NCBI GenBank assembly: GCA_964610305.1 | Contig: CAZSVL010000005.1 | Coordinates: 14,815-78,814 of the forward strand | Reading direction: 5' to 3' | Length of the DNA stretch: 64,000 bases | Source: an uncultured Gammaproteobacteria bacterium | GTDB lineage: Bacteria; Patescibacteriota; Patescibacteriia; Magasanikbacterales; JBBTXJ01 | Shown here: positions 19,248-42,557 of the stretch, piece by piece | Position numbering within the stretch: position 1 is the first letter of the stretch | Layout of the letters: each line of letters opens with the position of its first letter | Position numbers and translations under genes: made by a program | The notes under the pieces: model-generated | Told to the model about the DNA's origin: nothing | The model's database searches: none | Seen by the model: only the letters and a program-made list of their open reading frames with translations

Positions 19248-19261
19248 TTAAAAACGCCGCT

Positions 19262-21143: not shown

Positions 21144-21195
21144 CGAGTAGCCCCGACGCCCGAAGGGGTCGGGGGGCCGACTGAAACGTCGGCCC

Positions 21196-21258
21196 TCAAC
21201 CGGCAGAGCGCGAAGCTTATACCTTCGTGGTTCCAGGTTCAAGTCCTGGCTCACGCAC
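21196..21258 (+). repeat. 63-bp perfect direct repeat of the tRNA 3' portion (D-loop to discriminator); partial pseudo-tRNA
   Basis: Identical to 21081-21143. It lacks the 5' acceptor strand and a D-stem partner. The 52-bp spacer holds two small GC hairpins. Confidence 0.8.
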
Positions 21259-25455: not shown

Positions 25456-25458
25456 AAT

Positions 25459-27401: not shown

Positions 27402-29077
27402 CAATGCGGGAGTACAACCGGAGTTCATCACCGCGAATACTCGGTGTTATTTTAGCGCGCGGCGGATCTAAGGGTGTGCCACGAAAAAATATCAAGCCAC
27501 TTTTGGGCAAGCCTCTTATAGCATATACCATTGAGGAAGGTCTCAAATCCACTCACCTTACTGATTTGATCGTCTCTACTGAAGATAAGGAAATATCAGA
27601 CGTTGCAAAACAATGTGGCGCGCGCGTTCCTTTTGTTCGCCCTGATCATTTGGCAACAGACAACGCAACATCAAAAGCATGCTTGCAACACGCGGTTACA
27701 GAAATGGAAAAAATTACTGGCGAAAAATATGATTACATAATTGAGTTGATGTGCACCAATCCGCTTAAGAGTGTCCAGGACATTGATGCCATAATAGAGA
27801 AGCTGATTGAGACGCGGGCGGATTCCGTAATTGGTGTTGTCCAGCTTGACGACCATCATCCGGCAAGGATCAAAAAAATTGTGGATGATAGAATAGTGGA
27901 TTTTTGTATCCCGGAGCCAAACGGAGCGCGCAGGCAAGATCTAAAACCAGAGGCATACATTAGAAACGGCAGTATTTATGCCATGAAGCGTGATGTGCTC
28001 ATGATTCAAGACCGGCGGTATGGCACGCCAGATTCCAGGCCATACATTTTTCCTCCAGAGCGCTCCGTAAATATAGATAATAAAATAGATTGGGATATGG
28101 TGGAGCGCCGTATGTCAGAAGGAGCTGGTCAGAAGATACTATGCGCAACACCCATAAAGCATTTGAAAGGGGTATATGAATTGTTAGAGCAAGCTGGCCC
28201 AGTTTTGTACCACCCCTATATAAAAAAAGAGGAACTGACATCTTTGCTAAAGAGTGATCAAAGCATAACGGCACTTTTTGTAAATCCAAATAAAATGGGT
28301 TTTGTACTGGATCGGTCTGTGCTTAGCAATACGGGTGTAAAAGTCATCAATACCGCCTCAACCGGGCTCAATCATATTGCAGTAGAGCAAGTGCGGGAAC
28401 TGGGGATAGACATTCTATCTCTTACTGAAGATCGTCACATTATTGAACAGCTACCCTCTACCAGCGAGCTAGCTTTTGGTTTGATGTTGTCTCTGCTTCG
28501 TCCCATTGGGCCGTCTTTTGATTCTGTTAAATCAGGAAAGTGGGACTACGAGCCGTTTATGGGTCATCAGGTTCGTGGGTTAACCCTTGGGGTAATTGGA
28601 TACGGAAGATTGGGCAGTCTTATGGCTGAATACGGAAAAGCATTTGGTATGCGTGTGCTCGTTTATGATCCTCTTAAAAAAATTGATGGAGTTGAGCAAG
28701 TGGCGCTGAGTGTTTTGCTTGAAAACTCAGACGCGGTGTCTTTGCATGTTCATGTGAGCGATCAGACCAGAGGCATGATAAGCGCTTCTGCCATCAGGAC
28801 TATGAAAAAAGGTGCTGTTTTAATTAACACCTCCAGAGGTGAGATTGTGGACGAGCATGCTCTAACAGACGCTTTGCGGTCTGGACACCTAGGCGGTTAT
28901 GGTACTGATGTTTTGGCTGATGAGTTTGAAGACATAGAAAAAAGTCCACTTTTGACAGCTGCCAGAGACGGTTTGCCGGTGATTGTTACGCCACACATAG
29001 GAGGAATGACGTGGGAAGGTCAACAGCTTGCCTTTTCTCATGCTGCTAGAAAGTTTTTGAATAAGGAAAACGTATGA
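27398..29077 (+). CDS. bifunctional: N-terminal CMP-nonulosonate cytidylyltransferase (NeuA-like) fused to C-terminal D-isomer-specific 2-hydroxyacid dehydrogenase NAD-binding domain
   Basis: N-terminal GVILARGGSKGVPRKNIKPLLGKPLIAYTI is a CTP_transf_3 signature. C-terminal GVIGYGRLGSLMAEYGKAFGMRVLVYD Rossmann plus LINTSRGEIVDEHAL...HIGG is typical of 2-Hacid_dh. Confidence 0.7.
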   Translation: MTMREYNRSSSPRILGVILARGGSKGVPRKNIKPLLGKPLIAYTIEEGLKSTHLTDLIVSTEDKEISDVAKQCGARVPFVRPDHLATDNATSKACLQHAVTEMEKITGEKYDYIIELMCTNPLKSVQDIDAIIEKLIETRADSVIGVVQLDDHHPARIKKIVDDRIVDFCIPEPNGARRQDLKPEAYIRNGSIYAMKRDVLMIQDRRYGTPDSRPYIFPPERSVNIDNKIDWDMVERRMSEGAGQKILCATPIKHLKGVYELLEQAGPVLYHPYIKKEELTSLLKSDQSITALFVNPNKMGFVLDRSVLSNTGVKVINTASTGLNHIAVEQVRELGIDILSLTEDRHIIEQLPSTSELAFGLMLSLLRPIGPSFDSVKSGKWDYEPFMGHQVRGLTLGVIGYGRLGSLMAEYGKAFGMRVLVYDPLKKIDGVEQVALSVLLENSDAVSLHVHVSDQTRGMISASAIRTMKKGAVLINTSRGEIVDEHALTDALRSGHLGGYGTDVLADEFEDIEKSPLLTAARDGLPVIVTPHIGGMTWEGQQLAFSHAARKFLNKENV

Positions 29078-29991
29078 TTTCATCCGAGGTTATTCAAAAT
29101 GGACCGGGCAGATCTAGCAGGGTAGATGCCATCAGGCAAAGATTGGTGCGTTGGATTTCTCCAGCCAAGAGAGACAATCTTGCGGTGGTGTTAACCGCCA
29201 CTGTTCAGGTTCCCAGCGGGGTTCATATAAAAAGAACCAATACAGAGCTTCGCCACGATGATTATAAATGGGCTCTTAAAAAATGGCTTGGAAATCAATC
29301 CAGTGTTTCCAAGTTGGTGTTTGTTGAGAATTCTGGGTTTCCGCTGGATGAGCTGAAGGAAATTGCGCAGCACCACAATCCGTACGGCAAACGAGTAGAG
29401 TTTTTATCATTTGATTCAAGTGGAAGACAAAATAGAGACAAGAGTTTTGGGGAATTGATGATTATGCGCTACGCATTGGATAATTCTGTGCTTGTTGCAG
29501 AATCTGACTACATTGCTGAGGTTGGTGGGCGCGTATTTATCAGAAATTTCGACGCAATCATAAAAAGGATTCCAGAGCAGTTTGATGTTATCAGCTGCTG
29601 GCTTGGGAATTTTTCTAATGCCGATCTCAATTTGATTCTCATGAAAAAGAGCTTTTTTGATGAGCGCATTTTTCCGTATTTATCACGTTTTATTGATGTG
29701 GATAGAACGCTATCATATTTTGAGCGAGAATTTTCCAAGGCGGTGCATCTGTCTTTGGCTGATGATTATAGGTGGTATCCCTATCCCGTAGAGCCGTGGG
29801 TGCAAGGCATTGGCGGCGCCAAGAATAAATCTTATGGGCGCGGATTTTGGTACGTGATTAAGGGAACAATTATTACACGGCTGTTTTGCAGACAGTACAA
29901 AATGTCTCACGGTTACAACAGGAAACATATACTAGATATTTGGGACATAAAACCAGAGGCAAGACATAATTCTGTATTAAAGGTTCTATGA
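29074..29991 (+). CDS. hypothetical protein; stand-alone paralog of the C-terminal domain of the 933-aa protein at 39752..42553
   Basis: Shared blocks: KLVFVENSG vs KIVFVDNSA; VEFLSF; GRVFIRNFDAII vs GRVFVRNIDAIV; DYRWYPYPVEPWVQGIGGAKNKSY vs DYRWFPYSHEPVLQGMSGTKNISY. Confidence 0.45.
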   Translation: MISSEVIQNGPGRSSRVDAIRQRLVRWISPAKRDNLAVVLTATVQVPSGVHIKRTNTELRHDDYKWALKKWLGNQSSVSKLVFVENSGFPLDELKEIAQHHNPYGKRVEFLSFDSSGRQNRDKSFGELMIMRYALDNSVLVAESDYIAEVGGRVFIRNFDAIIKRIPEQFDVISCWLGNFSNADLNLILMKKSFFDERIFPYLSRFIDVDRTLSYFEREFSKAVHLSLADDYRWYPYPVEPWVQGIGGAKNKSYGRGFWYVIKGTIITRLFCRQYKMSHGYNRKHILDIWDIKPEARHNSVLKVL

Positions 29992-30443
29992 TATCCGGTG
30001 TTATAACAAAAGATATTGTTGAGCACCATGATGATCGTGGTTATTTTTCAGAATTAGTAAAAATGGGAGAGCCTACTTTTAAAGGTATAGCTCAGACCAG
30101 TTTTTCTCAGACTCATCCGGGTGTTATAAAGGCATTTCATTGGCATAAAAAAACCACGGAGATGTGGTGTCCTCTTTTTGGGAGCGCTCAAATTGTTCTC
30201 TATGATTTAAGAGAAGGGAGCCCAACACAGGGAGAGACTAATGTTTTTTACGGCGGTGGTAGAGCGCGCAAAATTATTGTAATACCGCCAGGCGTGGCTC
30301 ATGGCTACCGCGTTTTAGGTTCTGAGCCGCTGGGAATGCTTTATCACGCAAGTATCCCATATGATCCAAGTGCGCCCGACGAGTTCAGAATACCATTTGA
30401 TCACCCTCAAATAAATTTTGACTGGAAAACGCACCATCGTTGA
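29988..30443 (+). CDS. RmlC-like cupin sugar-nucleotide 3,5-epimerase / ketoisomerase family protein
   Basis: DDRGYFSEL, catalytic HxH region (FHWHKK), and IPPGVAHGYRVLG match the dTDP-4-dehydrorhamnose 3,5-epimerase fold. Confidence 0.6.
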   Translation: MISGVITKDIVEHHDDRGYFSELVKMGEPTFKGIAQTSFSQTHPGVIKAFHWHKKTTEMWCPLFGSAQIVLYDLREGSPTQGETNVFYGGGRARKIIVIPPGVAHGYRVLGSEPLGMLYHASIPYDPSAPDEFRIPFDHPQINFDWKTHHR

Positions 30444-30444
30444 T

Positions 30445-31401
30445 ATGTCTGCACAAAAAAACATTTTAGTTTTGGGTGCTGCAGGTTTTTTGGGATCCAA
30501 TATGATACGGCGCGTTTTGCTGGAAGATAATGTATCAGTTACCGCCGTGGATTCTTTGGATCCGGATTTGTACAGCTCTATGGATAATTTGAATGGAGTA
30601 CTGGACAAGATTACTTTTTTGCAAAAGGATGTTACCAATCCTAAAGTATTGCGAGAGATAATTCCTAATCACGATATTATTTTTTGCTGTGCTGCACAAA
30701 CGTCTCATTTAAGATCAGTGCAAGATCCTCTTTATGATGCAAAAGTGAATTGTATTGGCATTCTTATGCTGCTTGAAGCAGTGCGCACCCTTAATCCAGA
30801 AGCAACGGTTGTCTATCCGTCTACCAGCACCATAGTGGGGAAAGCATTTTCTGATGTCATTGATGAGAATCATAGAGAAAGGCCACTGGATATATATTCG
30901 GCAAACAAAGCAGCGGCCGATAAGTATTTTCAAATTTATCATTCGCTGCATGGGCTGAAAACCATCATACTTCGTTTCGCAAATTTGTATGGACCAGGAG
31001 GTAAGCCCTATCCCATTTTTGGTTTTATGAATTATTTTATTAGCCTAGCAGCTCAGGACAAGTCCATAACGGTTTATGGAGATGGGGCCCAAAAGAGAAA
31101 CACCATGTACATTGATGATGCAACGGACATAATGTGGTCGGCTGCTCACAATCCGCAACTAATTGGAGATCCTTATTATGCGGTTGCTGATGAGCATCAT
31201 AGTGTAGCAGATATTGCCAAACTCATGGTTCAGGTTTTCAAAAAGGGAAGTGTTGAGTTTATTCCGTGGCCAGACATAAGAAAAAAAATAGAGATAGAAC
31301 ATGTGCGCATTTCTCCAGCCGCTCTGCACAGAAGGACGGGGTGGAAGGCGCGTTATAGTCTGCAGGAGGGTCTAAAAAAAACAGCTGCGCATTATGATTG
31401 A
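30445..31401 (+). CDS. NAD-dependent epimerase/dehydratase (extended SDR)
   Basis: Rossmann ILVLGAAGFLGSN and YSANKAAADKY (YxxxK). ATG at 30445 sits directly after the upstream stop; track start 30418. Confidence 0.7.
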   Translation: MSAQKNILVLGAAGFLGSNMIRRVLLEDNVSVTAVDSLDPDLYSSMDNLNGVLDKITFLQKDVTNPKVLREIIPNHDIIFCCAAQTSHLRSVQDPLYDAKVNCIGILMLLEAVRTLNPEATVVYPSTSTIVGKAFSDVIDENHRERPLDIYSANKAAADKYFQIYHSLHGLKTIILRFANLYGPGGKPYPIFGFMNYFISLAAQDKSITVYGDGAQKRNTMYIDDATDIMWSAAHNPQLIGDPYYAVADEHHSVADIAKLMVQVFKKGSVEFIPWPDIRKKIEIEHVRISPAALHRRTGWKARYSLQEGLKKTAAHYD

Positions 31402-32335
31402 AGACAAGCCAATCGTTATAACGGGAGCCTTAGGTCATATTGGATCTGGCTTTATTCATAGAGGAATTACGCCGGGCGAGCATTTTATTTTGATAGACGA
31501 TTTAAGCTCTCAGCGATATGCCAGTATTTTTGGTCTACCAAAAGAGGCGCGGTATACCTTTATACAAGGCGATATAAATGAGATGGATTTTCAAGTAATT
31601 GAAGGTGCGCGTGTTGTTATTCATTTGGCGGCCATAACTGACGCTGCTAGCTCTCATGATAAAGCCCAGGAGGTGGAGCGCGTAAATTATGTGGGTCTAA
31701 AGCGCGTAGCTGACGCATGTTTGCAACATGGTGTACCGCTTATTTTTCCCTCAACCACATCGGTATATGGAAGCCAGGCACAACGCGTAGATGAGACGTG
31801 TAGAGAGTTGGCGCCGCAGAGTCCGTACGCGCAGGCAAAGCTTCAATCAGAAGAATATTTAAGGCACCTGCAAAGCCAAGGCTTAAAATTTGTGATCTGT
31901 AGATTTGGAACTATATTTGGTCCTTCTGCTGGATGGCGTTTTCATACGGCCGTTAACAAGTTTATCTGGCAAGCCGTAAATGGTCAGCCACTTACGGTTT
32001 GGAAAACGGCATGGCAACAACGAAGACCGTACTTAGATTTAGCGGATGCCATAGCTGCGCTCAGATTGATTATAGATAAGAATATCTATGATGGGCATAT
32101 CTATAACGTGCTCACTGCAAATTACACCGTGGAAGATATAGTAAAAAGCATTAAGAAATATGTGCCAAGCGTTAAAGTTAGTTACGTGGATAGCCCCATT
32201 ATGAATCAGCTGTCTTATGATGTTGATGGAAAGAAATTTGAGACGCAAGGATACTGCCCTCAAGGAAGTCTGGATTTAGGTATTTTTAATTCACTGCAAC
32301 AATTAAAAGGAATCAGCTCTACCTATGAATATTAA
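31394..32335 (+). CDS. NAD-dependent epimerase/dehydratase family protein (extended SDR)
   Basis: IVITGALGHIGSG Rossmann and YAQAKLQSE YxxxK. Confidence 0.65.
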   Translation: MIEDKPIVITGALGHIGSGFIHRGITPGEHFILIDDLSSQRYASIFGLPKEARYTFIQGDINEMDFQVIEGARVVIHLAAITDAASSHDKAQEVERVNYVGLKRVADACLQHGVPLIFPSTTSVYGSQAQRVDETCRELAPQSPYAQAKLQSEEYLRHLQSQGLKFVICRFGTIFGPSAGWRFHTAVNKFIWQAVNGQPLTVWKTAWQQRRPYLDLADAIAALRLIIDKNIYDGHIYNVLTANYTVEDIVKSIKKYVPSVKVSYVDSPIMNQLSYDVDGKKFETQGYCPQGSLDLGIFNSLQQLKGISSTYEY

Positions 32336-33494
32336 ACTTCAGCCTGTCATTGATTTTGGCATGATGCCTATTGCCAATGCTTTTGTTAAGCCGGGCCAAG
32401 TACGCGACGAGTATTTTTATAATATGGTGGTTGGCTATGATCCTCAGACGCATGCCATTGGATTATGTAATACCGTACCACCAGAGAAAATGTTTCATGA
32501 TGAGTATGCTTTTTTTTCTTCAACCTCAAAGGCAATGCAGCAGCATTTTTTTGACACTGCTGTTAGACTTTTGCCCTATGCAAAAGAAGGCATGGTTGTT
32601 GAGGTGGGGAGCAATGACGGGATTATGCTGGATGCGTGGAAGCATTTGGGTGTGCGCGCCATTGGGGTAGAGCCTTCAGGAAATGTAGCAGAAGAATCTA
32701 GAAAAAGAGGTCACAGCGTCTTGTCAGAGTTTATGAGTGAGCAAACCGTTGATACGATATTGCAGAAAGGAAAAGTGAGTTTGGTTTTTGGAGCCAACGT
32801 ATCGTGCCATATAGAAGATTTTATTTCTTACATAAAGTGCGTCACAAGACTCATAGGAAAAGAAGGTGTATTTGTTTTTGAGGATCCGTATTTTTTGGAC
32901 ATGGTTGCCAAGACCTCATATGACCAAGTTTATGATGAACATCTATGGTATTTTACGGTTAGTTTTATGAACAAGGTGCTAGCGCCAATGGGGTATCATG
33001 TTTTTGATGCAGAACATATTGGCGTGCATGGTGGACAACTGCGTATGTTTGTAGGCCACAAGGATTCTTTTGAAAAAACAGGAGCTGTTGATTACTGGTT
33101 GTCTTTAGAGCATGATCTTCCTACCAAGTTGGCTTTCTTTAAACACAATATAGAGAAGTCAAAAACAGCTTTGGTAGATTTATTGTATGGGCAGAAGAAG
33201 GCGGGAAAGCGGATGTGTGGTTTTGGCGCAAGCTCTAAGGGTGTTATTGTCGCAAATTACTGCGGTATTGGTCCAGACCTTTTGCCCTTCATCACAGACA
33301 ACACCCCAATCAAGCAAGGAACGTTATATCCGGGAGTCCACATACCGGTTGTTCCACAGGAGCAGTTTAAAAACGTAGATGTGGCCGTGCTGTTTGCGTG
33401 GAATCATTTTAAAGAGATAGATAGAAGTCAAAGAGATTTTCGTGATAGAGGTGGGCAATGGATTACCCACGTTCCTACTCCTAGAATTCTATGA
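32325..33494 (+). CDS. putative sugar C-methyltransferase / SAM-dependent methyltransferase (TylCIII-like architecture)
   Basis: N-terminal LQPVIDFGMMPIANAF resembles NDP-hexose C-methyltransferase N-terminal domains. MVVEVGSNDGIMLD is motif I. Family assignment is tentative. Confidence 0.5.
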   Translation: MNIKLQPVIDFGMMPIANAFVKPGQVRDEYFYNMVVGYDPQTHAIGLCNTVPPEKMFHDEYAFFSSTSKAMQQHFFDTAVRLLPYAKEGMVVEVGSNDGIMLDAWKHLGVRAIGVEPSGNVAEESRKRGHSVLSEFMSEQTVDTILQKGKVSLVFGANVSCHIEDFISYIKCVTRLIGKEGVFVFEDPYFLDMVAKTSYDQVYDEHLWYFTVSFMNKVLAPMGYHVFDAEHIGVHGGQLRMFVGHKDSFEKTGAVDYWLSLEHDLPTKLAFFKHNIEKSKTALVDLLYGQKKAGKRMCGFGASSKGVIVANYCGIGPDLLPFITDNTPIKQGTLYPGVHIPVVPQEQFKNVDVAVLFAWNHFKEIDRSQRDFRDRGGQWITHVPTPRIL

Positions 33495-34567
33495 CCGTGC
33501 CTTTTATTGATTTAAGGCAGGAGGCCGCTCAGATAAAATCTGATTATCTTTCTATTGTTTCAGAGATTCTTGACAGCGGATATTTCATGTTGGGGCAGCA
33601 CGTTGAGAAATTTGAAAAGGCTTTTGCTTTGAGACAAGGCGTGGCTCATTGTGTTGGTTTGAGCGCTGGGGCAGACGCTCTTTATTTGGCACTGCATACT
33701 TTGGGTATTGGCCAGGGGGATGAGGTAATTGTTCAAGGAAACGCATACAATGCCAGCGTTACCGCCATTTTAAGAGTAGGTGCCACGCCTGTTTTTGTTG
33801 ATGTGGATCTGCAGACAGCACGCATGATGACCGGCCAAATTGAGGCCGTCATTACTGAAAGAACTAAAGCGATAATGCCGGTACATTTGTACGGGCAGAG
33901 CAACAACATGGCCGCCATATCTCTTATTGCAAAGCAGCATGGTCTAAGGATCATAGAGGATTGCGCTCAGGCACATGACGCTCTTTGGGATGGAAAGCCC
34001 GTGGGTAGCTATTCAGACATTGCGGTGTTTAGTTTTTATCCGACAAAAAATTTGGGCGCCTTTGGAGATGCTGGTTGTATTGTTACCAACAATTGGGATC
34101 ATGCGGAGAAAATAAGAGCTTTGCGCAATCTTGGACAAGCTAAGAAAAATGATCACATATATGAAGGTTACAATATGCGTATGGACGTATTTGAGGCGGC
34201 GTGTCTTAATTTAAAAATGGAGCACTTATCATCATATACGCAAGCGCGGATTTCAGCCGCACAGTTTTACCACCAGAATCTAAAAAGTGTTACTCCTTTG
34301 GGGCAGGATCCTCGTGCGCAGCATGTCTATCATCTGTATGTAGTAGTGTGTGATGATCGTCAGAAAATAATAGATGCGCTAGAAAAAAAAGATATAGGCT
34401 ACGCCATTCATTATCCTCTCCCGGTTTATGATCAGCCTTTTTTTAAAGGAGAGCGACCAGACTGTCCAAATACTGATAGGCTTTGCAAAAGCATTTTGTC
34501 TCTCCCACTTTTTTCTAATATTAGTCAAGATCAGCAGCAAGAAGTTGTTGCTGCATTATCCATATGA
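33491..34567 (+). CDS. DegT/DnrJ/EryC1/StrS family PLP-dependent sugar aminotransferase
   Basis: FSFYPTKNLGAFGDAGCIVTNN, with the Lys in the PLP motif, and overall layout. Confidence 0.8.
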   Translation: MTVPFIDLRQEAAQIKSDYLSIVSEILDSGYFMLGQHVEKFEKAFALRQGVAHCVGLSAGADALYLALHTLGIGQGDEVIVQGNAYNASVTAILRVGATPVFVDVDLQTARMMTGQIEAVITERTKAIMPVHLYGQSNNMAAISLIAKQHGLRIIEDCAQAHDALWDGKPVGSYSDIAVFSFYPTKNLGAFGDAGCIVTNNWDHAEKIRALRNLGQAKKNDHIYEGYNMRMDVFEAACLNLKMEHLSSYTQARISAAQFYHQNLKSVTPLGQDPRAQHVYHLYVVVCDDRQKIIDALEKKDIGYAIHYPLPVYDQPFFKGERPDCPNTDRLCKSILSLPLFSNISQDQQQEVVAALSI

Positions 34568-35235
34568 ATGAAACAACAAGAATCGTCTCGTATGATCATC
34601 ACAACTTTCCCTTTGCTCCGATAACAGTCAATAATTTTAATACAGAACTTCCAGCACAAGTAACGGATCTTGGTGAGCTTCATGCTGTTGTCAAACGAAT
34701 GGGAATTGAATATGGTCCTATAACATCTGAGTCCTCTCAACAAAGCATTTTTCACGATCTGCACTACAAGTATCAGGAAGAAATGTTCTTGCCCTTGTAT
34801 CGCCGCTTTGTTAAAGAGGTAATTCATCCGCTATATGGTGAGCCAATAGTCTATCAAGCACGGCCAACTTTTAGAGTTCATCTTGTGGGCAACATGGCGG
34901 TGTCTGAGTTTCATAAGGATGGAGATTACAACCACCTTCCGGCGGAGCTTAATTTTTGGGTACCGCTGACACGCGTGTTTGATACTAATGCTGTGTGGAT
35001 TGAAAGTGAGGTGGGGGCGGCGGACTTTAAACCTCATGAGCTAAATTACGGACAGATGCTTATTTTTAAAGGAGTGGCATTAGATCATGGAAACAAGTCA
35101 AACACGACAGACAAAACACGGGTCAGCTTTGACTTTAGAGCTCTGCCCAAGAGGGATTTTGTAGAAACGGGAAAAACAACGCTTACTCAAAAAGTGCCGC
35201 TAGAGATTGGTGGCTACTATGATGTTATACAATAG
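34564..35235 (+). CDS. hypothetical protein (possible cupin/dioxygenase-like fold)
   Basis: No clear motif. HKDGDYNHLP...FRVHLVG hints at a metal-binding cupin. Sits inside the glycan cluster. Confidence 0.35.
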   Translation: MNETTRIVSYDHHNFPFAPITVNNFNTELPAQVTDLGELHAVVKRMGIEYGPITSESSQQSIFHDLHYKYQEEMFLPLYRRFVKEVIHPLYGEPIVYQARPTFRVHLVGNMAVSEFHKDGDYNHLPAELNFWVPLTRVFDTNAVWIESEVGAADFKPHELNYGQMLIFKGVALDHGNKSNTTDKTRVSFDFRALPKRDFVETGKTTLTQKVPLEIGGYYDVIQ

Positions 35236-35236
35236 T

Positions 35237-36352
35237 ATGAGCACGCATAATATAAGAATGGCTGATCCGTGGATTACAGAGCACGAGGTCTCAACTGTGA
35301 CAGACATGATGAGAAATGGCTGGAAGAATTATGATTACGTGGAAAAGTTTGAGCCAGCATTTGCCCGTTATCATGATAGAGTCTATGGGATCATGACTCC
35401 CAATTGTACTTCTGCACTTCATCTACTTTTGCTTGCTTTGGGCATAGAGCAAGGAGATGAGGTTATTGTGCCGGAGTGCACGTGGACAGGATCAGTTGCG
35501 CCTATTACTTATGTTGGTGCGGTTCCTGTTTTTTGTGACATTCAGGTAGATAATTGGTGTTTGGATCCGGATTCTGTTGTCGGGAGAATTACAGAAAAAA
35601 CCAAGGCTATTATTGCGGTAGATCTGTATGGAAATATGCCAGATATGGATCGTTTGCAAGCTATCTGTGATGAGCGCGGAATTTATTTGATAGAAGATGC
35701 GGCAGAGGCTTTAGGATCTAAGTATAAAGGAAAGAGGGCTGGAGCTTTTGGTGTGGGAAGTGTGTTTAGTTTTCACAGAACCAAAACGCTGACAACGGGA
35801 GAGGGCGGGATGTTGCTCCTTGATGATCAAAAGCTATATGAGCGGGCTATGTTCTTGCGGGATCACGGGAGATCAAAGACTGTGTCTTATTACACACTTG
35901 AGGCTACGCCAAAATATATGCCGTCAAATTTGCAGGCGGCTATAGGTTATGCTCAATTTGAGCGACTAGGAGAGTTGGTGGCCAGAAAACGCGAGATTTT
36001 CTTTGGATACAAACAGCGTTTGGCAGATGTGGCGGATATTACCATGAATGAAGAGTCTGAAAACGTCTATAACGGTGTATGGGCGCCATCTGTTGTTTTT
36101 GGATCAAAGCACGGTGTCAGCAAACAGATGGTAATGGCCGGGCTTAAAAAACAAGGGTTGCCATCAAGGCCGTTTTTCTATCCCATGTCTATGCTGCCGG
36201 CATATGCGTGCTACGGTAGTGGAGATTCGGTTAGAAATCCTGTTGCTTATGACGTAAGCGCGCGGGGCATAACGCTACCAGCGGCTTATGATATAACAGA
36301 AGATCAAATGGATATCTATTGTGCCGGCATAAAAAATATTTTACATGGCTGA
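35237..36352 (+). CDS. DegT/DnrJ/EryC1/StrS family PLP-dependent sugar aminotransferase (second copy)
   Basis: VFSFHRTKTLTTGEGGMLLLDD motif. ATG 35237 sits directly after the upstream stop; track start 35207. Confidence 0.8.
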   Translation: MSTHNIRMADPWITEHEVSTVTDMMRNGWKNYDYVEKFEPAFARYHDRVYGIMTPNCTSALHLLLLALGIEQGDEVIVPECTWTGSVAPITYVGAVPVFCDIQVDNWCLDPDSVVGRITEKTKAIIAVDLYGNMPDMDRLQAICDERGIYLIEDAAEALGSKYKGKRAGAFGVGSVFSFHRTKTLTTGEGGMLLLDDQKLYERAMFLRDHGRSKTVSYYTLEATPKYMPSNLQAAIGYAQFERLGELVARKREIFFGYKQRLADVADITMNEESENVYNGVWAPSVVFGSKHGVSKQMVMAGLKKQGLPSRPFFYPMSMLPAYACYGSGDSVRNPVAYDVSARGITLPAAYDITEDQMDIYCAGIKNILHG

Positions 36353-37115
36353 AAACGCTAAAATTGGGATCTGCGCCGCCTTTAAGATGGGCTATAAAGT
36401 GTTGGAGTTTGTGATAAGAGAGGCTCAGTTTAGGCCCGCCGTTGTCTTTACCTCTCACAGAGACGACTCAGAATATGAGGGTATGATTTTTGCGTTGTGC
36501 GAATATTACAACATCCCCTGCGAGAGAAAAGTAAACGTGAACAAGAAAGAGGCGCACAGCACATTGGATTCATACAATTTGGATCTGATGATTTTGGCTT
36601 GGTGGCCATCAATAGTAAAGGGGGAGGCTATCTCAAAAACAGCAAAAGGTTGGCTTAACATGCATCCTAGCCTTCTTCCCTTTAATCGTGGCAAGCATCC
36701 GTACTACTGGTCAATTGTAGAGGGAACGCCTTTTGGCGTAACCCTTCATTTGATAGATGAAGGTGTGGATACAGGCCCGCTTCTTTTTCAAAAAGAGATT
36801 GCCGTTGAGTTTGAGGACACAGGAGAGACGCTTTATCAAAAGGGTTTGGATACTATATATGATCTTTTTGTTGAGAGTTTTGAGAATATCCGCGCTTTAA
36901 AATTGCAACCACTGCCACAGACAGATGCGCACGCCACGTTTAGATTGAGCAAAGAGTTGGATCCTCATACGCAGATAGATTTAGAAAAAGAGTATCGCGC
37001 AGAAGATTTGATAAATCGGCTTCGTGGACGCACCTTTTTGCAAGGTGACAGTGCTTTTTGTGTTCGTAATGGAAAGAAGTATTTACTAAAAATTATTATA
37101 GAGCCTCAAGATTAA
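36345..37115 (+). CDS. sugar N-formyltransferase (Formyl_trans_N family)
   Basis: WLNMHPSLLPFNRGKHPYYWSIVEGTPFGVTLHLIDEGVDTGPLLFQ matches the formyltransferase catalytic core (N/H/D triad region). Confidence 0.7.
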   Translation: MAENAKIGICAAFKMGYKVLEFVIREAQFRPAVVFTSHRDDSEYEGMIFALCEYYNIPCERKVNVNKKEAHSTLDSYNLDLMILAWWPSIVKGEAISKTAKGWLNMHPSLLPFNRGKHPYYWSIVEGTPFGVTLHLIDEGVDTGPLLFQKEIAVEFEDTGETLYQKGLDTIYDLFVESFENIRALKLQPLPQTDAHATFRLSKELDPHTQIDLEKEYRAEDLINRLRGRTFLQGDSAFCVRNGKKYLLKIIIEPQD

Positions 37116-37116
37116 T

Positions 37117-38955
37117 ATGGCAGAGCATTGGTATGGTGTAGCGCAGGACATCGCAGATTGCAAACGCTTGCAAAGGTGGGGTAGAAAAAAGAAATTGACT
37201 ATTATTACCTGTTCGCTTGAAGCGCGCCTTTTTTTGGAGGACAGCGGGACGGAAACTATCTATGTATGGGATATATTTGATATGGAGCAGCTGATTGATC
37301 AGGCTTTTTTTAAGGCAAAAGAAATGACGTTGGAAGATGCCTTTGGTGATGTGCTCTATAAAAAAGCAGCAATTCACCGCATGCATGTGGAATTTTTAAG
37401 TCACGCTGTTGCTTCAAAGATGCTTGCTGATAAAATTGTTGCCTACGTTCAAGAGCGCGCTGGCAGCGTGGTGATCGCCAAAATCTCACACATATTTTTT
37501 GGTCCATATTTTCCGTTGGCTCAGAGAAAAATGCAGCGCAACCCACTATTGCTTGAGTTTATTGTAGAAGTCTCTAATAGAGAGGGTGTAAAAAATGTGC
37601 GCCAGGGAGTGGATATGTTTTTTGCCTCTTTGTGGGCTCCGGTTGTATACCGATATGCCATATCAAAGCAGATCATCTCTGATGCTATGTCTTTGCTGTG
37701 GGGGGCTGCCAGCAAAATAAAGACAATTGACGATTTGCTTGCTTCTCATTCGCAGGTTCATATTCTCAGTATTGGATGGGGAAGGGATTTACATAGGATG
37801 CTTTCTTTGTCAGAGTTGCATCAGGAGCTTGAGGCGTCAGGTAAAAGAGCTGTTCATGTTTTGTGGCGCCCAAAAAAATTATCGGATAAGGATCAGTCAG
37901 TCGGCCCAACATTACGTATTAGAGAACAGATTAAAAAGGGGGTTACGTATGGACCATCCATTTCAATGTTGGGTTTAAAGAGGTGGCGCACGTTGTTTGC
38001 GTTTTATAGATCAGCCGCGCATTATAAAGCGTTTAGCCCAACCTTAGAAAAGCTGAGTAGCTCATCGGTGTACCGATTAAATATTTTGTATAACGCCTTT
38101 TTTTCTTATCGTGAAACATTTTTGACATCATTGATAACTGCAAAAATAATAAAAAAAGTAAGACCAAAAGTCATGTTGGGTTCAGATAGTGGTGGGGAGA
38201 GTGCGCGATCTGAGATGATAGTAGCTCAATCGGCTGGCATAAGGACTGTTAGTACGCCTCATGGGTATCAGGCTTACGCCATGGAGAGTTATAATTATTT
38301 GGCTGATAAGGTTCTCACCTACGGAACAGCTACGGCCGGTATTTTAAAGCACTGTGGTGTTCAGGAAGAGAGAATTTCTGTAGTGGGGTCTAGTCACAAG
38401 CGTTCAGGAAAAAACTCTCTAGGGTCTCCCATTAAAGTGGTCATAGGAACACGAAGTTGGGGAGGGCTGTGGTCTAACTACAGCAGTGTTCATCCAAAGT
38501 TAGATAAGAATTTTAGGGAATTGCTTCATGCGCTTAAGAAAGATGATCGGTTTGAAGTCACCATAAAATCTCATCCCAACGGAGATTTGCACGGATATTA
38601 TGATCTATTAGTTGATCGTATGGGAAGCGACAGAATAAGACATATTGCGGCTGGTTGGAGAGCGGAGGTTTTTGAGCAGAAGTGCGATATTTTAATTTGT
38701 ATGGGAGATTGTCCAAGTCTCTATGTCTCAGCGCTCTACTTAAACAAACCTATAATATTTGTTGAGGGTTGTATGAGTATGACACAGAAAAAAATGGGAT
38801 ACGTGTACGATGGTTGTGCTTCAGTTGTTAGCGATGGCGGGCAGGCATATCTGGCTTGCCTTGCAGATTTAGCAAATGATGCAGAATTTAAAGACGCATT
38901 TGGGATCGTGCAAAATACTGGCAAGAGCGTGTCCAAAATATTAACGACATTTTAA
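37117..38955 (+). CDS. large hypothetical protein (612 aa), paralog of N-terminal 600 aa of the protein at 39752..42553; candidate glycosyltransferase by context
   Basis: Collinear similarity with the 933-aa protein: TPHGYQAYAMESYNYLADKVL vs IPHGYKAYAVRPYDYLARFVL; GTRSWGGLWSN vs ATRSWGGMWSN; KSHPNGDLHGYYDLLV vs KSHPNGDYHEYYDLIV; MGDCPSLYVSAL vs LGDCPSFFVTAL. No family assigned. Confidence 0.5.
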   Translation: MAEHWYGVAQDIADCKRLQRWGRKKKLTIITCSLEARLFLEDSGTETIYVWDIFDMEQLIDQAFFKAKEMTLEDAFGDVLYKKAAIHRMHVEFLSHAVASKMLADKIVAYVQERAGSVVIAKISHIFFGPYFPLAQRKMQRNPLLLEFIVEVSNREGVKNVRQGVDMFFASLWAPVVYRYAISKQIISDAMSLLWGAASKIKTIDDLLASHSQVHILSIGWGRDLHRMLSLSELHQELEASGKRAVHVLWRPKKLSDKDQSVGPTLRIREQIKKGVTYGPSISMLGLKRWRTLFAFYRSAAHYKAFSPTLEKLSSSSVYRLNILYNAFFSYRETFLTSLITAKIIKKVRPKVMLGSDSGGESARSEMIVAQSAGIRTVSTPHGYQAYAMESYNYLADKVLTYGTATAGILKHCGVQEERISVVGSSHKRSGKNSLGSPIKVVIGTRSWGGLWSNYSSVHPKLDKNFRELLHALKKDDRFEVTIKSHPNGDLHGYYDLLVDRMGSDRIRHIAAGWRAEVFEQKCDILICMGDCPSLYVSALYLNKPIIFVEGCMSMTQKKMGYVYDGCASVVSDGGQAYLACLADLANDAEFKDAFGIVQNTGKSVSKILTTF

Positions 38956-38984
38956 GCGCACTAAGCGCATGAAAAGTAACTTTT

Positions 38985-39761
38985 ATGAGAGCATATAATT
39001 CTGGCTTTGTTGACTATAACCCGCAAGGGCTAGTTTTAGAAATTGCTTCAGGGCTGAATCCCACCTTTGAGGCAGATGTATTACTGGAAGCAGACAGATC
39101 ATTTATAGAGCCCTTAACCAAACGAGGTTATGCCGCACTATACGGTGACGCACTGAATCTTCCTTTTAAAGACAAGAGTTTTGATTATATTAGCTGTTTG
39201 CATTTGGCGGAGCATTTTGAGAAGCATGAGTTGGTTCAGTTTTTTTCAGAGCTGCAGCGCGTGGCGTCAAGAGGGTATCTAGAGGTTCCCTCAATTTACT
39301 GGGAACTGATGGCCAACTGTGATGCGCCGCTGGTTGGAGAAGGGACTATAGATGGGCATCATAAACAATTGTGTTTTCTGCACGACGGCGTGCTGCACAT
39401 GATAAGGAAATCTGATGAGAAAAATCCAGAGCATCAGCTACTCAGAGCTCTTTTCTTTAATGCTATCAACGCTGACGCTACGGCGGAAAATATTGAGATA
39501 ATGATGATAGGATTTCAGTGGGAAGGGGAGATTAAGGTAGAGTTTCATGAATCTCTTGCGGCAGTTCCTGAATATTTGAGCAGAGCAATGGTCTATCGGT
39601 TAAAAAAATATGGCGAGAGTAAAAAAAGTAAGACACCGCTGGCGCGGATGATTCACGGATATCTAAAGGCGCTTAAGGATAAAAAAAGAAAGAGAGAAAA
39701 ATCGGACAAGCAACGGTTAAAAGGGCGTAAACAATTTAATATAGAAGATCTTTGCAGGTGA
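38985..39761 (+). CDS. class I SAM-dependent methyltransferase-like protein with Lys-rich C-terminus
   Basis: LVLEIASGLNP motif I-like; GDALNLPFKDKSFDYISCLHLAEHF is a Methyltransf_11 pattern. Confidence 0.5.
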   Translation: MRAYNSGFVDYNPQGLVLEIASGLNPTFEADVLLEADRSFIEPLTKRGYAALYGDALNLPFKDKSFDYISCLHLAEHFEKHELVQFFSELQRVASRGYLEVPSIYWELMANCDAPLVGEGTIDGHHKQLCFLHDGVLHMIRKSDEKNPEHQLLRALFFNAINADATAENIEIMMIGFQWEGEIKVEFHESLAAVPEYLSRAMVYRLKKYGESKKSKTPLARMIHGYLKALKDKKRKREKSDKQRLKGRKQFNIEDLCR

Positions 39762-42553
39762 TTTTTCAGGGCTGTATGAAATACGGTTTTATAACGGAAA
39801 CAATTGAGGATTGTAAGCAGGTTCTAAAATGGTCAGCGTCTGTTGGCAAGGCTGAGATTGTTGTGATTGCTTTGTCTTTGGAATCTTTTGAATATTTTAA
39901 GCGCAACAGTTCTTTAAAGATTTCATGTTTGCATATCTGGGACATAGCAGACATGGAAACTATTATTGATGAGGCGTTTGTTGATGCCGAGCAGTCATTT
40001 AAAGAATGGATGAATCTTTTTTCTGACCGTGAAGATTCTCTATTTGATGTTGCCGTTCAGCACCGTTTTCATATTGAGTTCTTAAACCACGCACATGTTT
40101 GCTTGAGTGTGGCAACTCTAATGGCTACCTATTTTAAAGAGAGCGGGTTAACGTATGTGGTGTCTGCCGTGCATCCGGTTTTTGCTGGCCCCTTTTTTCC
40201 TAATCATCACAAGAATATAAGACGCAGTTTTCTTTTTAAGTCCATTTCTTATGAGATTTTTGTAAGAAAGAATGTTTCCTGCCGTTTTATTGATAAGAGA
40301 TCTTGGTTTGTACTCAAGGCTATTCCCGCTCTGCTTTGGTTTCGTGTGATAAGTAGATTGCTAAGAGATGGGGCTATATTTGTCGTTGATAGGTTGCGCA
40401 AGCGCCCAACACTTGAGCGCATGTTTGCTGCGGGACCCAAGCATGCCGATGTTGTTTGGTCTGGGTGGGGTAATGATTTGTCTGTCTATTTCTTGCCTTC
40501 AGAAGTTCATAGGCTTTCTGTTGAAAGTGGGTACACATCGGTACATATGGTAAGCAGGCCACAAAAGCTGAAGGAGCACAATGCTAACTTTGTTAAGGAG
40601 CATGACAATCTTTTTTTTCATACGCCCGATGAGATTCACAAAGCAGTTTCACATGGTCCTCGGATATCGCTTTTTCCTCTGTCAACGTTGAAGCGGTATG
40701 TAGGATCATTTTTACGATCCACCATTCCTCACCGATTTCGCGCTTTAAAAAATCCTAGCGGCATGCCTTCTTTTAAAGCACTTCTTGCGCTAAAAGGATT
40801 TAGGTGCGCCATGGCATTTAATGTTTTTATTGCTTATAGAGAAGCCTTCTTTTCAAAAGAGCTAAGTCTGGCAATAGCTAAGCGTTTTAATCCTGCTTTT
40901 TTTGTGGGGACCGATAGCGCTAACGTTGCCTGCCGGGCAGAGCTTGCTGTTATGAATGCTCGGGGAGTAACCACTCTTAGCATACCTCACGGCTATAAGG
41001 CCTATGCGGTGCGACCTTATGATTATTTGGCTCGTTTTGTTTTGGCGCCTGGTAGTATGAGTAAATCTCTTGCGGTTTCTGTCGGCGTGCCTGAGGAAGA
41101 TGCAAAGATTGTTGGGTGTCGAGAAATAGGGAGAAAGAAAATTTATGACGCAACTAAACAAAAAGTAAAAGTTGTTATAGCAACGAGGAGTTGGGGAGGT
41201 ATGTGGTCTAATATGGGAGTTGTTCAGAAAGAGTACGATATTCAGCTGCGATCTCTAATTGAAGGTTTGTCAAAAAAGGCATCTTATGAGACCGTAGTAA
41301 AATCGCATCCAAACGGTGATTATCATGAGTACTATGATCTTATTGTCTCTGGGCTTGGTAGTCCATCGGTAAAACATGTTAGTAAGGGGTGGAAGAGGGA
41401 TTATTTTTTGGATCAGTGTGATGTTGCCGTATTTTTGGGGGATTGTCCCAGCTTCTTTGTGACCGCTCTTATGAGCGGGATACCGTGCGTTTTTATAAAG
41501 GGGACCATGAGCAAGTCTCAAAAGAGAATGAATTATTCTTTTGATAGATGCGCTTATGTGGTTGATGATGTTCAGCAAGCCTTAGAAGCTATAGATAGTC
41601 TTGCCTCTGGCACTGAGTTTGCACACGTGGCTTTGGATAAGCAGAACTCACGCGTTGATGAGCTCAGGGGTGCGCAAGCTCCAGAGGAGGTCGCAATGCA
41701 ATTAATTTCAAAATTTTCTATGCCTATCTCAAATGAGAGGAGCCAAAAAACAGATATAGCTCTTTTGCTTGTTGCAACCATTAACATAGGAAACAAGGCG
41801 CTACTAAAGCGCAATAATACCAAAGAGCGTTTGCTGGATTATGAGCAGTCATTGCGTTTGTGGTTGAAACAAAAAAGCATCAGTAAGATTGTTTTTGTAG
41901 ATAATTCAGCATACAGTCTTGATAGTTTAAAAAAGGTTGCGGCAGAGCATAATACGCTTGGCAAAGAGGTTGAATTTCTCTCTTTTAATTTTGTTTCTCC
42001 AACTGATTCAAATATTGCATTGGGCGAACTGGTGTCTATTGATCACGCGCTGGAGAATTCAAAGCTATTGAGTACTTGCGACTCTTTTGTTAAGATGACT
42101 GGCCGGGTATTCGTTCGTAATATTGATGCTATTGTGAAGGATTTAGATGCAGGCTTTCACATGGTCTCCCGGCTTTCTGAGAATTTAACGTATGTAGATA
42201 GCGCTTCTGTTATCTTCAATAAAAAGTTTTATCTTGAAATGGTTTCTGGTTTCTGCAAAGATGAACTTAAGAGAGTGATTGAGCGAGGAGAGAGGACTGA
42301 TATTGAAAGGTTGTTTGCAAAAGCCTTGCATAGAGGTGTTGCGCTAGACTACCGGTGGTTCCCCTATTCTCATGAGCCGGTTTTGCAAGGCATGTCTGGA
42401 ACAAAAAATATTTCATATGCAAAAAGACACAATGCCTACAGAGCACTAAAGATGCATGTTTTTGGGAGAATGTTTTATAGGCTTACCAGAACATCTTGGG
42501 GGGAGAGTTCTGGCCGCAGACATTTAATGGATAGGTGGGGGATAGAAAAATAG
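39752..42553 (+). CDS. very large hypothetical protein (933 aa): N-terminal region paralogous to 37117..38955 plus C-terminal domain paralogous to 29074..29991; candidate nonulosonate/glycan transferase by context
   Basis: Paralogy blocks as listed for the two partner genes. No recognisable catalytic signature. Confidence 0.5.
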   Translation: MQVIFQGCMKYGFITETIEDCKQVLKWSASVGKAEIVVIALSLESFEYFKRNSSLKISCLHIWDIADMETIIDEAFVDAEQSFKEWMNLFSDREDSLFDVAVQHRFHIEFLNHAHVCLSVATLMATYFKESGLTYVVSAVHPVFAGPFFPNHHKNIRRSFLFKSISYEIFVRKNVSCRFIDKRSWFVLKAIPALLWFRVISRLLRDGAIFVVDRLRKRPTLERMFAAGPKHADVVWSGWGNDLSVYFLPSEVHRLSVESGYTSVHMVSRPQKLKEHNANFVKEHDNLFFHTPDEIHKAVSHGPRISLFPLSTLKRYVGSFLRSTIPHRFRALKNPSGMPSFKALLALKGFRCAMAFNVFIAYREAFFSKELSLAIAKRFNPAFFVGTDSANVACRAELAVMNARGVTTLSIPHGYKAYAVRPYDYLARFVLAPGSMSKSLAVSVGVPEEDAKIVGCREIGRKKIYDATKQKVKVVIATRSWGGMWSNMGVVQKEYDIQLRSLIEGLSKKASYETVVKSHPNGDYHEYYDLIVSGLGSPSVKHVSKGWKRDYFLDQCDVAVFLGDCPSFFVTALMSGIPCVFIKGTMSKSQKRMNYSFDRCAYVVDDVQQALEAIDSLASGTEFAHVALDKQNSRVDELRGAQAPEEVAMQLISKFSMPISNERSQKTDIALLLVATINIGNKALLKRNNTKERLLDYEQSLRLWLKQKSISKIVFVDNSAYSLDSLKKVAAEHNTLGKEVEFLSFNFVSPTDSNIALGELVSIDHALENSKLLSTCDSFVKMTGRVFVRNIDAIVKDLDAGFHMVSRLSENLTYVDSASVIFNKKFYLEMVSGFCKDELKRVIERGERTDIERLFAKALHRGVALDYRWFPYSHEPVLQGMSGTKNISYAKRHNAYRALKMHVFGRMFYRLTRTSWGESSGRRHLMDRWGIEK

Positions 42554-42557
42554 AGAT

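Follow-up and report, generated by a model that had tools for sequence, protein, structure and literature searches.

Three related proteins built of two modules

We analysed three proteins, here called A, B and C, which are encoded within a glycan operon on a 64,000-nucleotide stretch of DNA from an uncultured bacterium (contig CAZSVL010000005.1; the whole stretch is referred to as the window). All three open reading frames (ORFs) are present on the + strand where a first-pass annotation, made from the sequence alone, had placed them: C (305 amino acids, aa) at 29074-29991, A (612 aa) at 37117-38955, and B (933 aa) at 39752-42553. The start of B is ambiguous, as the longest ORF begins with TTG at 39752 (933 aa) while the public gene call (P0001) begins with ATG at 39776 (925 aa); the ORF starting from TTG overlaps the preceding methyltransferase gene by 10 nucleotides. 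Using BLASTP, A aligned with residues 11-623 of B with 32% identity over 614 collinear columns (E 1e-111), and C aligned with residues 631-932 of B with 36% identity (E 4e-54). Both likenesses are far above chance, and they bear out the proposal that A and B are collinear paralogs and that C is a stand-alone copy of the C-terminal part of B. B is laid out as an N module (approximately aa 1-630), a linker, and a C module (approximately aa 665-933) in a single chain, with A as the stand-alone N-module protein and C as the stand-alone C-module protein. The motifs quoted in the annotation (PHGY, TRSWGG, KSHPNGD, GDCPS, VEFLSF, GRVF(I/V)RN and DYRW) were all found. Taken together, these results show that A, B and C are true relatives built of two unnamed enzyme modules, N and C.

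As had also been noted, no named family could be assigned to these proteins. None of the three matched a Pfam or NCBIfam model, with A giving a sub-threshold match to Glyco_transf_4 (E 0.048), and none matched a sequence in the PDB, where B found no relative and the profiles of both families gave nothing meaningful. The same was found for 24 N-family and 44 C-family members, in which the module itself was without a Pfam, NCBIfam or PDB-sequence match. A hydropathy scan showed no conserved membrane helix.

The N module has a predicted GT-B fold with an invariant HP motif

The structure of A was predicted by AlphaFold2 from an alignment of 24 sequences, with a predicted local distance difference test (pLDDT) score of 88.7 and a predicted template modelling (pTM) score of 0.90. 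A Foldseek search of the PDB with this model returned 188 chains at E<=1e-3, and the best 50 of the 188 were all glycosyltransferase (GT) enzymes of the GT-B type or epimerases with the GT-B fold. UDP-GlcNAc 2-epimerases lead (3beo, 1.5e-11; the NeuC structures 5xvs and 5zlr are among them), followed by CalG-type GT1 enzymes, MurG, HepE, and the TagF-like capsule multienzyme Cps3 (8qoy). The template modelling (TM) scores, when normalised to the target, were 0.45-0.58 for all matches but the much longer 8qoy (0.23). These results predict that the N module consists of an accessory domain joined to a GT-B fold. As read from the secondary-structure string of the model, the accessory domain of A would be alpha/beta-helical and cover approximately aa 1-205, and the GT-B core would cover approximately aa 210-612, with a seven-strand N-terminal Rossmann domain starting from an invariant S-G-W-G loop and a C-terminal Rossmann domain from approximately aa 436. 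Weak matches to the Pfam model Glyco_transf_4 were seen in 4 of the 24 N members (best E 9.7e-6).

Conservation was mapped on the same 24 members using the numbering of A. W221, H382 (in S-T-P-H-G-Y), K484, H486, P487 and D490 (in I-K-S-H-P-N-G-D), and P545 are invariant, and D357 (in G-S-D-S-G), R364, T445, S447 and W452 (in T-R-S-W-G-G-L-W-S-N), and G530 are nearly so. Columns conserved in at least 90% of the members are most frequent in the C-terminal Rossmann domain (18 of 164, versus 7 of 220 and 6 of 204 in the other two parts), making this domain the most conserved part of the family and, by analogy with other GT-B enzymes, the putative donor binder. The HP motif of A (K484-S-H486-P487; 38566-38577, + strand) follows the second strand of the C-terminal Rossmann domain, on the strand-loop, and the HP motif of B (K517-S-H-P520) is at 41300-41311 on the + strand. 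The invariant H382 of A, in P-H-G-Y (38257-38268, + strand), belongs to the N-terminal Rossmann domain within the GT-B core and is a candidate catalytic base.

In bacterial sialyltransferases and beta-Kdo transferases, the histidine of the HP motif contacts or protonates the CMP phosphate (PMC2169525, PMC10148158). The K-x-H-P stretch of the N family aligns with IKHHP of KpsS, VKVHP of KpsC and IKPHP of NeuS, and the corresponding stretches are P-V-H-L-N-P in WecB and V-F-H-P in NeuC. In the kps/neu cluster of E. coli UTI89 (L014), NeuE (18473-19621), which RefSeq labels "DUF6716 putative glycosyltransferase", has a K-H-P-H stretch, a reminder that motifs of the HP type turn up repeatedly in little-characterised proteins encoded in such clusters.

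In its presumed mode of action, the N module most resembles the HP-motif GT-B transferases (GT38, GT52, GT80, the GT107 enzymes KpsC/KpsS, and the GT99 enzyme WbbB), with which it shares its predicted fold and a K-x-H-P placed behind a strand of the C-terminal Rossmann domain. The sialyl- and polysialyltransferases (GT38, GT52, GT80) have an HP motif, and this motif is present and invariant in 24 of 24 members of the N family. In addition, D357 stands at a strand end 129 residues before the HP motif, compared with a spacing of 125 residues between the two motifs of the NmB polysialyltransferase (PMC2169525); its D-S-G was equated with the D/E-D/E-G motif of those enzymes by spacing and strand position, rather than by superposition. 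The N module differs from the HP-motif transferases in having no Pfam match and an extra domain of approximately 200 aa, and none of these transferases was among its best 50 fold matches.

The first-pass annotation had further suggested a possible Maf- or KpsC-like nature, and this was not borne out. The Capsule_synth model (PF05159) of KpsC/KpsS (GT107) did not match A, B or any of the 24 N members even at E<=10. When the N-family profile was compared by hhalign with the single E. coli sequences of KpsC, KpsS, NeuS, NeuE, NeuC and WecB, the probabilities were 3.8% for KpsC and 8.7% for KpsS, limited to 73-89 columns around the HP motif and insignificant outside that stretch. KpsC/KpsS and WbbB are retaining Kdo transferases with a triad of an Asp nucleophile, the HP-motif His and a Glu base (PMC10148158). 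The HP His of this triad is invariant in the N family, and equivalents of its Asp and Glu were not located, as there was no reliable alignment. Maf models (DUF115, PF01973; MAF_flag10) had no Pfam match in A, B, C or the family members, and no Maf protein was among the best 50 fold matches. For GT4, one member matched Glycos_transf_1 at E 0.092, and the region reads G-E-x-P-S-x4-A-L, without the Glu pair of E-x7-E.

Since the leading structural matches are UDP-GlcNAc 2-epimerases (WecB, MnaA, NeuC/LegG; E 1e-11, with target-normalised TM scores of 0.52-0.58 for the best ten) and include the hydrolysing NeuC (5xvs, 5zlr), we considered, as the main rival to a transferase role, that the N module might supply the NeuC/LegG/PseG step that the locus lacks, acting as a nucleotide-sugar hydrolase or hydrolysing 2-epimerase. 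It would then free the 6-carbon sugar that NeuB joins to phosphoenolpyruvate, and only C and the GT2 protein of the operon would act as transferases. We regard this explanation as unlikely. The Epimerase_2 model (PF02350) matched faintly in 3 of the 24 N members (best E 0.055, under the threshold), and a low-confidence hhalign alignment with WecB over 239 collinear columns pairs D357 with D95 and H486 with H213. This alignment is insignificant (7.9% probability), and NeuC gave nothing (0.3%, P 0.18). The catalytic acids of WecB are D95, E117 and E131 (E. coli numbering). In the same low-confidence alignment, the positions of E117 and E131 are Y/F and mostly P in the N family, so they are not acidic or not conserved. 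Furthermore, the N proteins exceed the epimerases in length by approximately 250 aa and have an additional domain.

Another explanation is that the N module is a TagF-like phosphotransferase or polymerase that uses a CDP-activated alcohol or hydroxy-acid to build a teichoic-acid-like phosphodiester polymer. This explanation appears very improbable. Cps3 gave the longest alignment among the fold matches (E 5e-9 over 702 columns), but it is the sole link to TagF, ranks 17th, and has a root-mean-square deviation of 25 A. The Glyphos_transf model (PF04464) of TagF-type enzymes matched none of the 24 members even at E<=10. There is one invariant His in each Rossmann domain (H382 and H486), and T-R-S-W follows the first strand of the C-terminal domain, features which presumably resemble those of TagF. 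CMP is also the leaving group in TagF chemistry, which would fit the HP motif.

The C module has a predicted GT-A-like fold without a DXD motif

The structure of C was predicted by AlphaFold from 106 sequences, which were also used for the analysis of conservation (pLDDT 87.2, pTM 0.84). Foldseek returned 141 PDB chains at E<=1e-3; the best match was the galactofuranosyltransferase GfsA (8yrl, 3e-7), followed by hyaluronan synthase, LH3, COLGALT1 and LgtC, and WrtF was also among the matches. The majority of the matches are GT-A glycosyltransferases, which predicts a GT-A or nucleotide-diphospho-sugar-transferase-like fold for the C module. Together with the GT-B fold predicted for the N module, this agrees with the expectation, which had been set for a structural check of the annotation, that the proteins have glycosyltransferase-type folds.

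The residues conserved in the C family are R54, R60, D63, Y64, N86, S87, G126, E127, K149, G152, R153, N158, E217 and G245. G-R-V-F in the C module of B (42101-42112, + strand) is equal to G152-R153 of C and contains the invariant Arg. There is no DXD motif. As judged by eye from the order of strands in the model, rather than from a computed superposition, the T-G-R containing R153 may occupy the DXD position of GT2-type enzymes. A fuller mapping by eye onto GT2 (ENSG for DDgS, GKGxGE, TGR for DXD, and FEH for ED) was not supported by the comparison with GT2 profiles and has the standing of a conjecture. Among 44 C members, there was no GT2 match on the C module, and GT2 matches came solely from fused partner domains.

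A GT-A-like fold without DXD and with invariant basic residues is reminiscent of the metal-independent GT-A enzymes (Bogt6a of GT6, C2GnT-L of GT14, GT29/GT42, and WrtF of GT2). Basic residues that take the place of the metal are described for Bogt6a and C2GnT-L, and such enzymes are few (PMC12595478). Unlike what would be expected of a member of these families, the C module has no sequence kinship with them, and GT42 and GT29 were not among its best fold matches.

It is improbable, in our assessment, that the C module is instead a nucleotidyltransferase or another small-molecule transferase (of the CofC/FbiD/MobA type) which acts on a phospho-hydroxy-acid or a sugar phosphate and is no glycosyltransferase. 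This explanation draws on fold matches to the cytidylyltransferase 6oew (E 3e-6), the DUF2064 protein 3cgx, RmlA, GDP-mannose and ADP-glucose pyrophosphorylases, CofC (2i5e) and FbiD (7p97), which give the highest target-normalised TM scores (0.45-0.49), and also on the lack of DXD and on the invariant R54 and R60 after the first strand. However, most fold matches, including the best one, are GT-A glycosyltransferases. The C module has no match to the Pfam models NTP_transferase, CTP_transf_3, NTP_transf_3, CTP_transf or MobA and no NCBIfam match, and the loop after its first strand reads L-T-A-T-I-x-P...R-x-D-x3-R, compared with G-x-G-x-R in nucleotidyltransferases. In addition, the partners to which C modules are fused elsewhere are glycosyltransferase domains and methyltransferases (GT2 and a methyltransferase in P0033, GT61 in P0039, and a methyltransferase in P0029), as is usual for glycan-synthase modules.

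C and N genes form a conserved pair in glycan loci

In order to compare gene contexts, related loci were scanned with hidden Markov models (HMMs) of the families and with the proteins of the window. In each of the 10 distinct loci for which upstream context was available (the window, L002, L003, L004, L006 (the same as L016), L009, L011, L012, L018, and L027 (the same as L028)), a C-type gene is found upstream of the N-type one. They are immediate neighbours in L004, L018 and L027/L028; in the other loci, they bracket 4 to 10 variable sugar-nucleotide genes, which are of the FdtA, C-methyl, amino and formyl types in some loci, based on GDP-mannose dehydratase in Uhrbacteria, and of the Rml type in L027. 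The bracketed content varies between related loci, and C and N keep their positions. A GT1-like gene directly follows the N-type gene in L002, L003, L006, L011 and L012 and is two genes further downstream in L027.

In the window, L003, L006, L007, L009, L011, L012 and L017, the gene immediately before the C-type gene is the last of a module for NeuB, a methyltransferase, a CMP-sugar synthetase and a 2-hydroxyacid dehydrogenase, which may or may not include GT2. The window order of GT2, NeuB, methyltransferase, synthetase, dehydrogenase and C is kept in L003, L006/L016, L007, L009, L011 and L012. The position of the C gene directly after the dehydrogenase gene in most loci would also suit the nucleotidyltransferase explanation, but L007 and L011 hold an RmlA-type nucleotidyltransferase besides the C-type gene, and distant C members occur among glycosyltransferase genes in Wzx/Wzy loci.

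The co-occurrence with neuB and neuA expected by the annotation held for the N family, which shares an operon with NeuB and a CMP-synthetase in 6 of the 7 loci having at least 6 kb of upstream sequence. It did not hold for the exception, L027/L028, or for the wider C family. L027 and L028 are marine metagenome contigs in which the C-type gene (267 aa, seen on 16 contigs) abuts the N-type gene (658 aa; L027 4205-6985, L028 6523-9303) among genes of the dTDP-6-deoxyhexose type and two Antibiotic_NAT genes, and no homologue of NeuB, the CMP-synthetase, the dehydrogenase or the aminotransferase was found on either contig (approximately 6 kb). This argues against a role of the pair that is confined to the synthesis of a nonulosonate precursor and, thus, against the hydrolase explanation for N. 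C-family members were likewise found without nonulosonate genes in a Haematobacter plasmid exopolysaccharide locus (labelled "hypothetical protein", with GDP-fucose genes, Wzx and an EpsG-type polymerase), in L008 (with GT2, GT25, GT10 and Wzx), and in L024 (with FdtA, a C-methyltransferase, DegT, DUF4422 and GT17). Since these wider members occur without nonulosonate genes, the C family overall is a general family of glycan-locus enzymes, of which the members linked to NeuB are one clade.

The window operon encodes an ABC-transporter-dependent pathway and a CMP-sugar module

One long operon covers 22021-43574 on the + strand of the window. It is headed by genes for the ABC-2 permease Wzm and the ATPase Wzt (22021-24095, + strand; assigned by Pfam and NCBIfam), the latter with a weak carbohydrate-binding Wzt_C tail; Wzm-Wzt also stand at the head of the operon in L007 and L016. 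By their sequence assignment, they define an ATP-binding cassette (ABC)-transporter-dependent glycan pathway. Next on the + strand, at 24076-29077, are genes for a GT2 fusion protein, a NeuB-family synthase, a methyltransferase, and a fusion of a CMP-sugar synthetase with a D-2-hydroxyacid dehydrogenase, which end immediately before C. The statement in the annotation that the cluster otherwise lacks an obvious transferase does not stand in view of the GT2 fusion (24076-25455). This protein has a C-terminal tail of approximately 230 aa with a weak likeness to cytidylyltransferases (CTP_transf_3 E 0.003, NTP_transf_3 E 0.0018), and the equivalent GT2 in L007 and L011 is fused instead to a TylF-type O-methyltransferase.

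In the ORF at 27398-29077, the CMP-sugar synthetase (CTP_transf_3) is nearest to the nonulosonate (PseF-type) synthetases (E 1e-42), with its PseF match falling under the cut-off. The synthetase and dehydrogenase are separate adjacent genes in L003, L006, L007 and L012, always within the module with NeuB and the methyltransferase. A cytidylyltransferase and a dehydrogenase that are fused or adjacent in every NeuB-type locus, by analogy with the reductase/cytidylyltransferase pairs that make CDP-ribitol, would fit the TagF-like explanation for the N module. However, this cytidylyltransferase is PseF-like and adjoins NeuB, which makes a CMP-nonulosonate the simpler product. We know of no described nonulosonate pathway that uses a 2-hydroxyacid dehydrogenase, so the product of this module is probably an undescribed nonulosonic-acid derivative; a literature search found nothing relevant on nonulosonate in Patescibacteria or on nonulosonate together with a 2-hydroxyacid dehydrogenase.

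One step of nonulosonate synthesis is unaccounted for, as no NeuC/LegG/PseG gene accompanies NeuB and the CMP-synthetase. Using phmmer with E. coli NeuC and WecB, no NeuC/LegG homologue was found in 22021-43574 of the window or in L003, L006, L009, L011 and L012, and no Epimerase_2 or PseG-type domain is present in the gene tables of the window or the related loci. Both this gap and the position of the N-type gene, which always comes after the last aminotransferase or acyltransferase gene (the place of this step in known nonulosonate pathways), favour the hydrolase explanation for the N module. The tight C-N pairing and the fusion to a GT-A-like module in B would be unexpected of a precursor enzyme, and two N copies in one locus would be redundant.

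Between C and A, the sugar-nucleotide tailoring genes (29988-37115, + strand) encode, in order, a cupin, two epimerase/dehydratases, a C-methyltransferase, a DegT aminotransferase, a 223-aa protein, a second DegT protein, and an N-formyltransferase. The 223-aa protein (34564-35235) has a weak match, under the threshold, to TIGR04324 (the "sporadic carbohydrate cluster" 2-oxoglutarate-Fe(II) oxygenase) and is conserved in L009. A 258-aa methyltransferase is encoded between A and B (38985-39761, + strand), homologues of which adjoin the N-type gene or lie close to it in L005, L009/L010, L011 and L012, and a 338-aa LegB-like epimerase/dehydratase is encoded after B (42558-43574, + strand).

Upstream of the operon are a tRNA-Ile gene with the anticodon TAT (21071-21144) and, at 21186-21257, a second tRNA-like Rfam match (30.5 versus a threshold of 29 bits) that was not called by ARAGORN. 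Outside the glycan operon, ORFs without a Pfam match at E<=1e-4 are found at 10764-12896 (710 aa), 17730-19247 (505 aa), 48432-50632 (343 and 390 aa), and 59473-61326 (617 aa).

B is a fused C-N pair and no recent duplicate

In L009, the locus of the closest relative, the orthologue of A is 64% identical and that of C is 81% identical. The operon there ends with A, the methyltransferase and a valyl-tRNA synthetase. Compared with L009 11877-14805, the window has at 39752-43574 an insertion or deletion of approximately 3.8 kb at the end of the operon. Because both B and the 338-aa epimerase are absent from L009, they are a lineage-specific addition. A recent duplication of A and C within the genome was ruled out as the source of B: its N module is 32.5% identical to A versus 34.9% to P0011 from another metagenome, and its C module is 36.4% identical to C versus 48.4% to its closest homologue, which is from Candidatus Uhrbacteria. 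Since the modules of B resemble A and C no more than they resemble homologues in other lineages, these comparisons indicate that B is an old or acquired N and C pair that became fused. B is the C-N gene pair joined in one chain, and this joining indicates that both modules act in concert.

The N family is rare and the C family is large

When B and the alignment of the three proteins were used in word-index searches for homologues, only B itself was returned. An exhaustive HMMER search of 1.84 billion representatives with a profile of B, A and C gave 1967 proteins at E<=1e-3. Among the best 150 of the 1967 matches, 31 besides B match the N module (approximately 20 of them full-length, with 600-670 aa), the remaining 118 correspond to the C module and are mostly stand-alone proteins of approximately 240 aa, and B is the sole protein to match both halves. 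Judged by these sequence searches, the N family is very rare, with approximately 30 clusters among the 1.84 billion representatives, and the C family is much larger; most of the 1967 matches are probably of the C type. A contig scan of 185,579 genomes found the N family in one species representative, a metagenome-assembled genome of Candidatus Uhrbacteria, and tblastn found no N-family homologue on plasmids. For the C family, tblastn gave one weak match, on an unannotated phage contig, and a metagenome scan with a narrower C-family alignment gave 11 loci, which were mostly short. The window proteins that were looked up are all singletons at 90% identity. With Uhrbacteria as the sole named relative, an origin of the window in the candidate phyla radiation (CPR) is plausible.

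A glycosyltransferase pair as a possible function

We propose, with about an even chance of being right, that the N and C modules cooperate as a pair of GT-B and GT-A-like glycosyltransferases for a glycan exported by Wzm/Wzt, and that B is the single-chain form of this pair. The N and C enzymes would assemble, and perhaps polymerise or cap, the glycan on the cytoplasmic side, and Wzm/Wzt, encoded at the head of the operon, would export it. In the N module, the C-terminal Rossmann domain may bind the nucleotide donor, as in other GT-B enzymes; H486 of K-S-H-P would stabilise or protonate the leaving nucleotide phosphate in the way described for the CMP-dependent sialyl- and Kdo-transferases, and activation of the acceptor would fall to D357 and H382 on the other domain. 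In the C module, R153, R54 and R60 may replace the metal in neutralising the phosphate, with E217 as a candidate base. The fusion in B would then resemble that of bifunctional polymerases. The paralogy, the motifs, the synteny and the fusion are observed, and the folds come from confident models; the transferase activity, the roles of the residues and the donor are what we propose on that basis.

Several results weigh against this proposal. In the fold search, the N module came closest to UDP-GlcNAc 2-epimerases, which are not transferases, and its query-normalised TM scores are low (0.31-0.38). For the C module, these scores are also low (0.34-0.44 when normalised to the query, and 0.34-0.49 over both normalisations), nucleotidyltransferases (6oew, RmlA, CofC and FbiD) are among the fold matches, and hhalign of the C family with 9 GT2 domains found nothing (probability 0.2%). 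Neither of the two families is linked significantly by sequence to a characterised family of glycosyltransferases, and all hhalign probabilities of the N family with the six E. coli reference proteins were under 9%, with no discrimination between them. Bacterial sialyl- and polysialyltransferases have, besides the HP motif, a D/E-D/E-G motif in which the second acid is essential (PMC2169525). Only half of this motif is present in the N family: D357 of G-S-D-S-G is kept, and the residue before Gly is S, A, V or I and never acidic, so that the family lacks the second acid, the catalytic one in PmST1.

For one of the two modules, the CMP-activated product of NeuB is the favoured donor. Use of such a donor by the N module is favoured by its HP motif and its conserved putative donor domain, and the linkage of N-family genes to NeuB and CMP-synthetase in most loci, in ABC-transporter pathways, is a further likeness to the HP-motif transferases. 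Caution is suggested by the place of the N gene near the amino-sugar genes and by the NeuB-less pair of L027, and we regard this assignment as possible but rather doubtful. The C module is the other candidate, because its gene follows the CMP-synthetase module. Of the proposal in the annotation that these proteins are candidates for new CMP-sugar transferases, the transferase-type folds, the HP motif and the linkage to NeuB and CMP-synthetase in 6 of 7 loci stood up; the CMP-sugar donor was left in doubt by the NeuB-less L027/L028 pair and the epimerases as nearest fold.

The proposed pair has a counterpart in the polymerases and terminators of ABC-transporter pathways (WbbB, WbdA/WbdD, Cps3 (8qoy), and WsaE-type enzymes). 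Apart from the fold match to 8qoy, the comparison uses the established domain make-up of WbbB, WbdA/WbdD, and the WsaE-type and TagF-like multienzymes. As in these systems, GT-B and GT-A-like modules are joined (in B), the operon is headed by Wzm/Wzt, and methyltransferases adjoin. In contrast, neither module belongs to the families of these enzymes, the modules are separate genes in most genomes, and no coiled-coil or tetratricopeptide repeat ruler was seen.

A more far-reaching version, which we advance only tentatively and consider rather unlikely to hold in full, is that the C-N pair is a new two-component machine for glycan polymerisation or capping. The N module would then found a GT-B family for CMP-nonulosonates, with K-x-H-P and a His base and without D/E-D/E-G, and the C module would found a large family of metal-independent GT-A enzymes, in uncultured hosts that may belong to the CPR. 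In this same tentative version, the C family would comprise on the order of a thousand clusters at 50% identity across bacteria, annotated as "hypothetical protein".

Taken together, these results indicate that both modules are unclassified families of known folds, and if they are true transferases, they would be two glycosyltransferase families that are lacking from Pfam, NCBIfam and the PDB. The N family would be a rare GT-B family, seemingly limited to little-known uncultured bacteria with surface glycans that have so far gone uncharacterised, and the C family would be a widespread GT-A-like family without the metal-binding DXD, the naming of which would improve the annotation of glycan loci. 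Current understanding is not overturned by these results; they provide a well-defined target for biochemistry. The transfer enzyme of an undescribed nonulosonic-acid derivative, or its missing hydrolase step, is probably among A, B and C.

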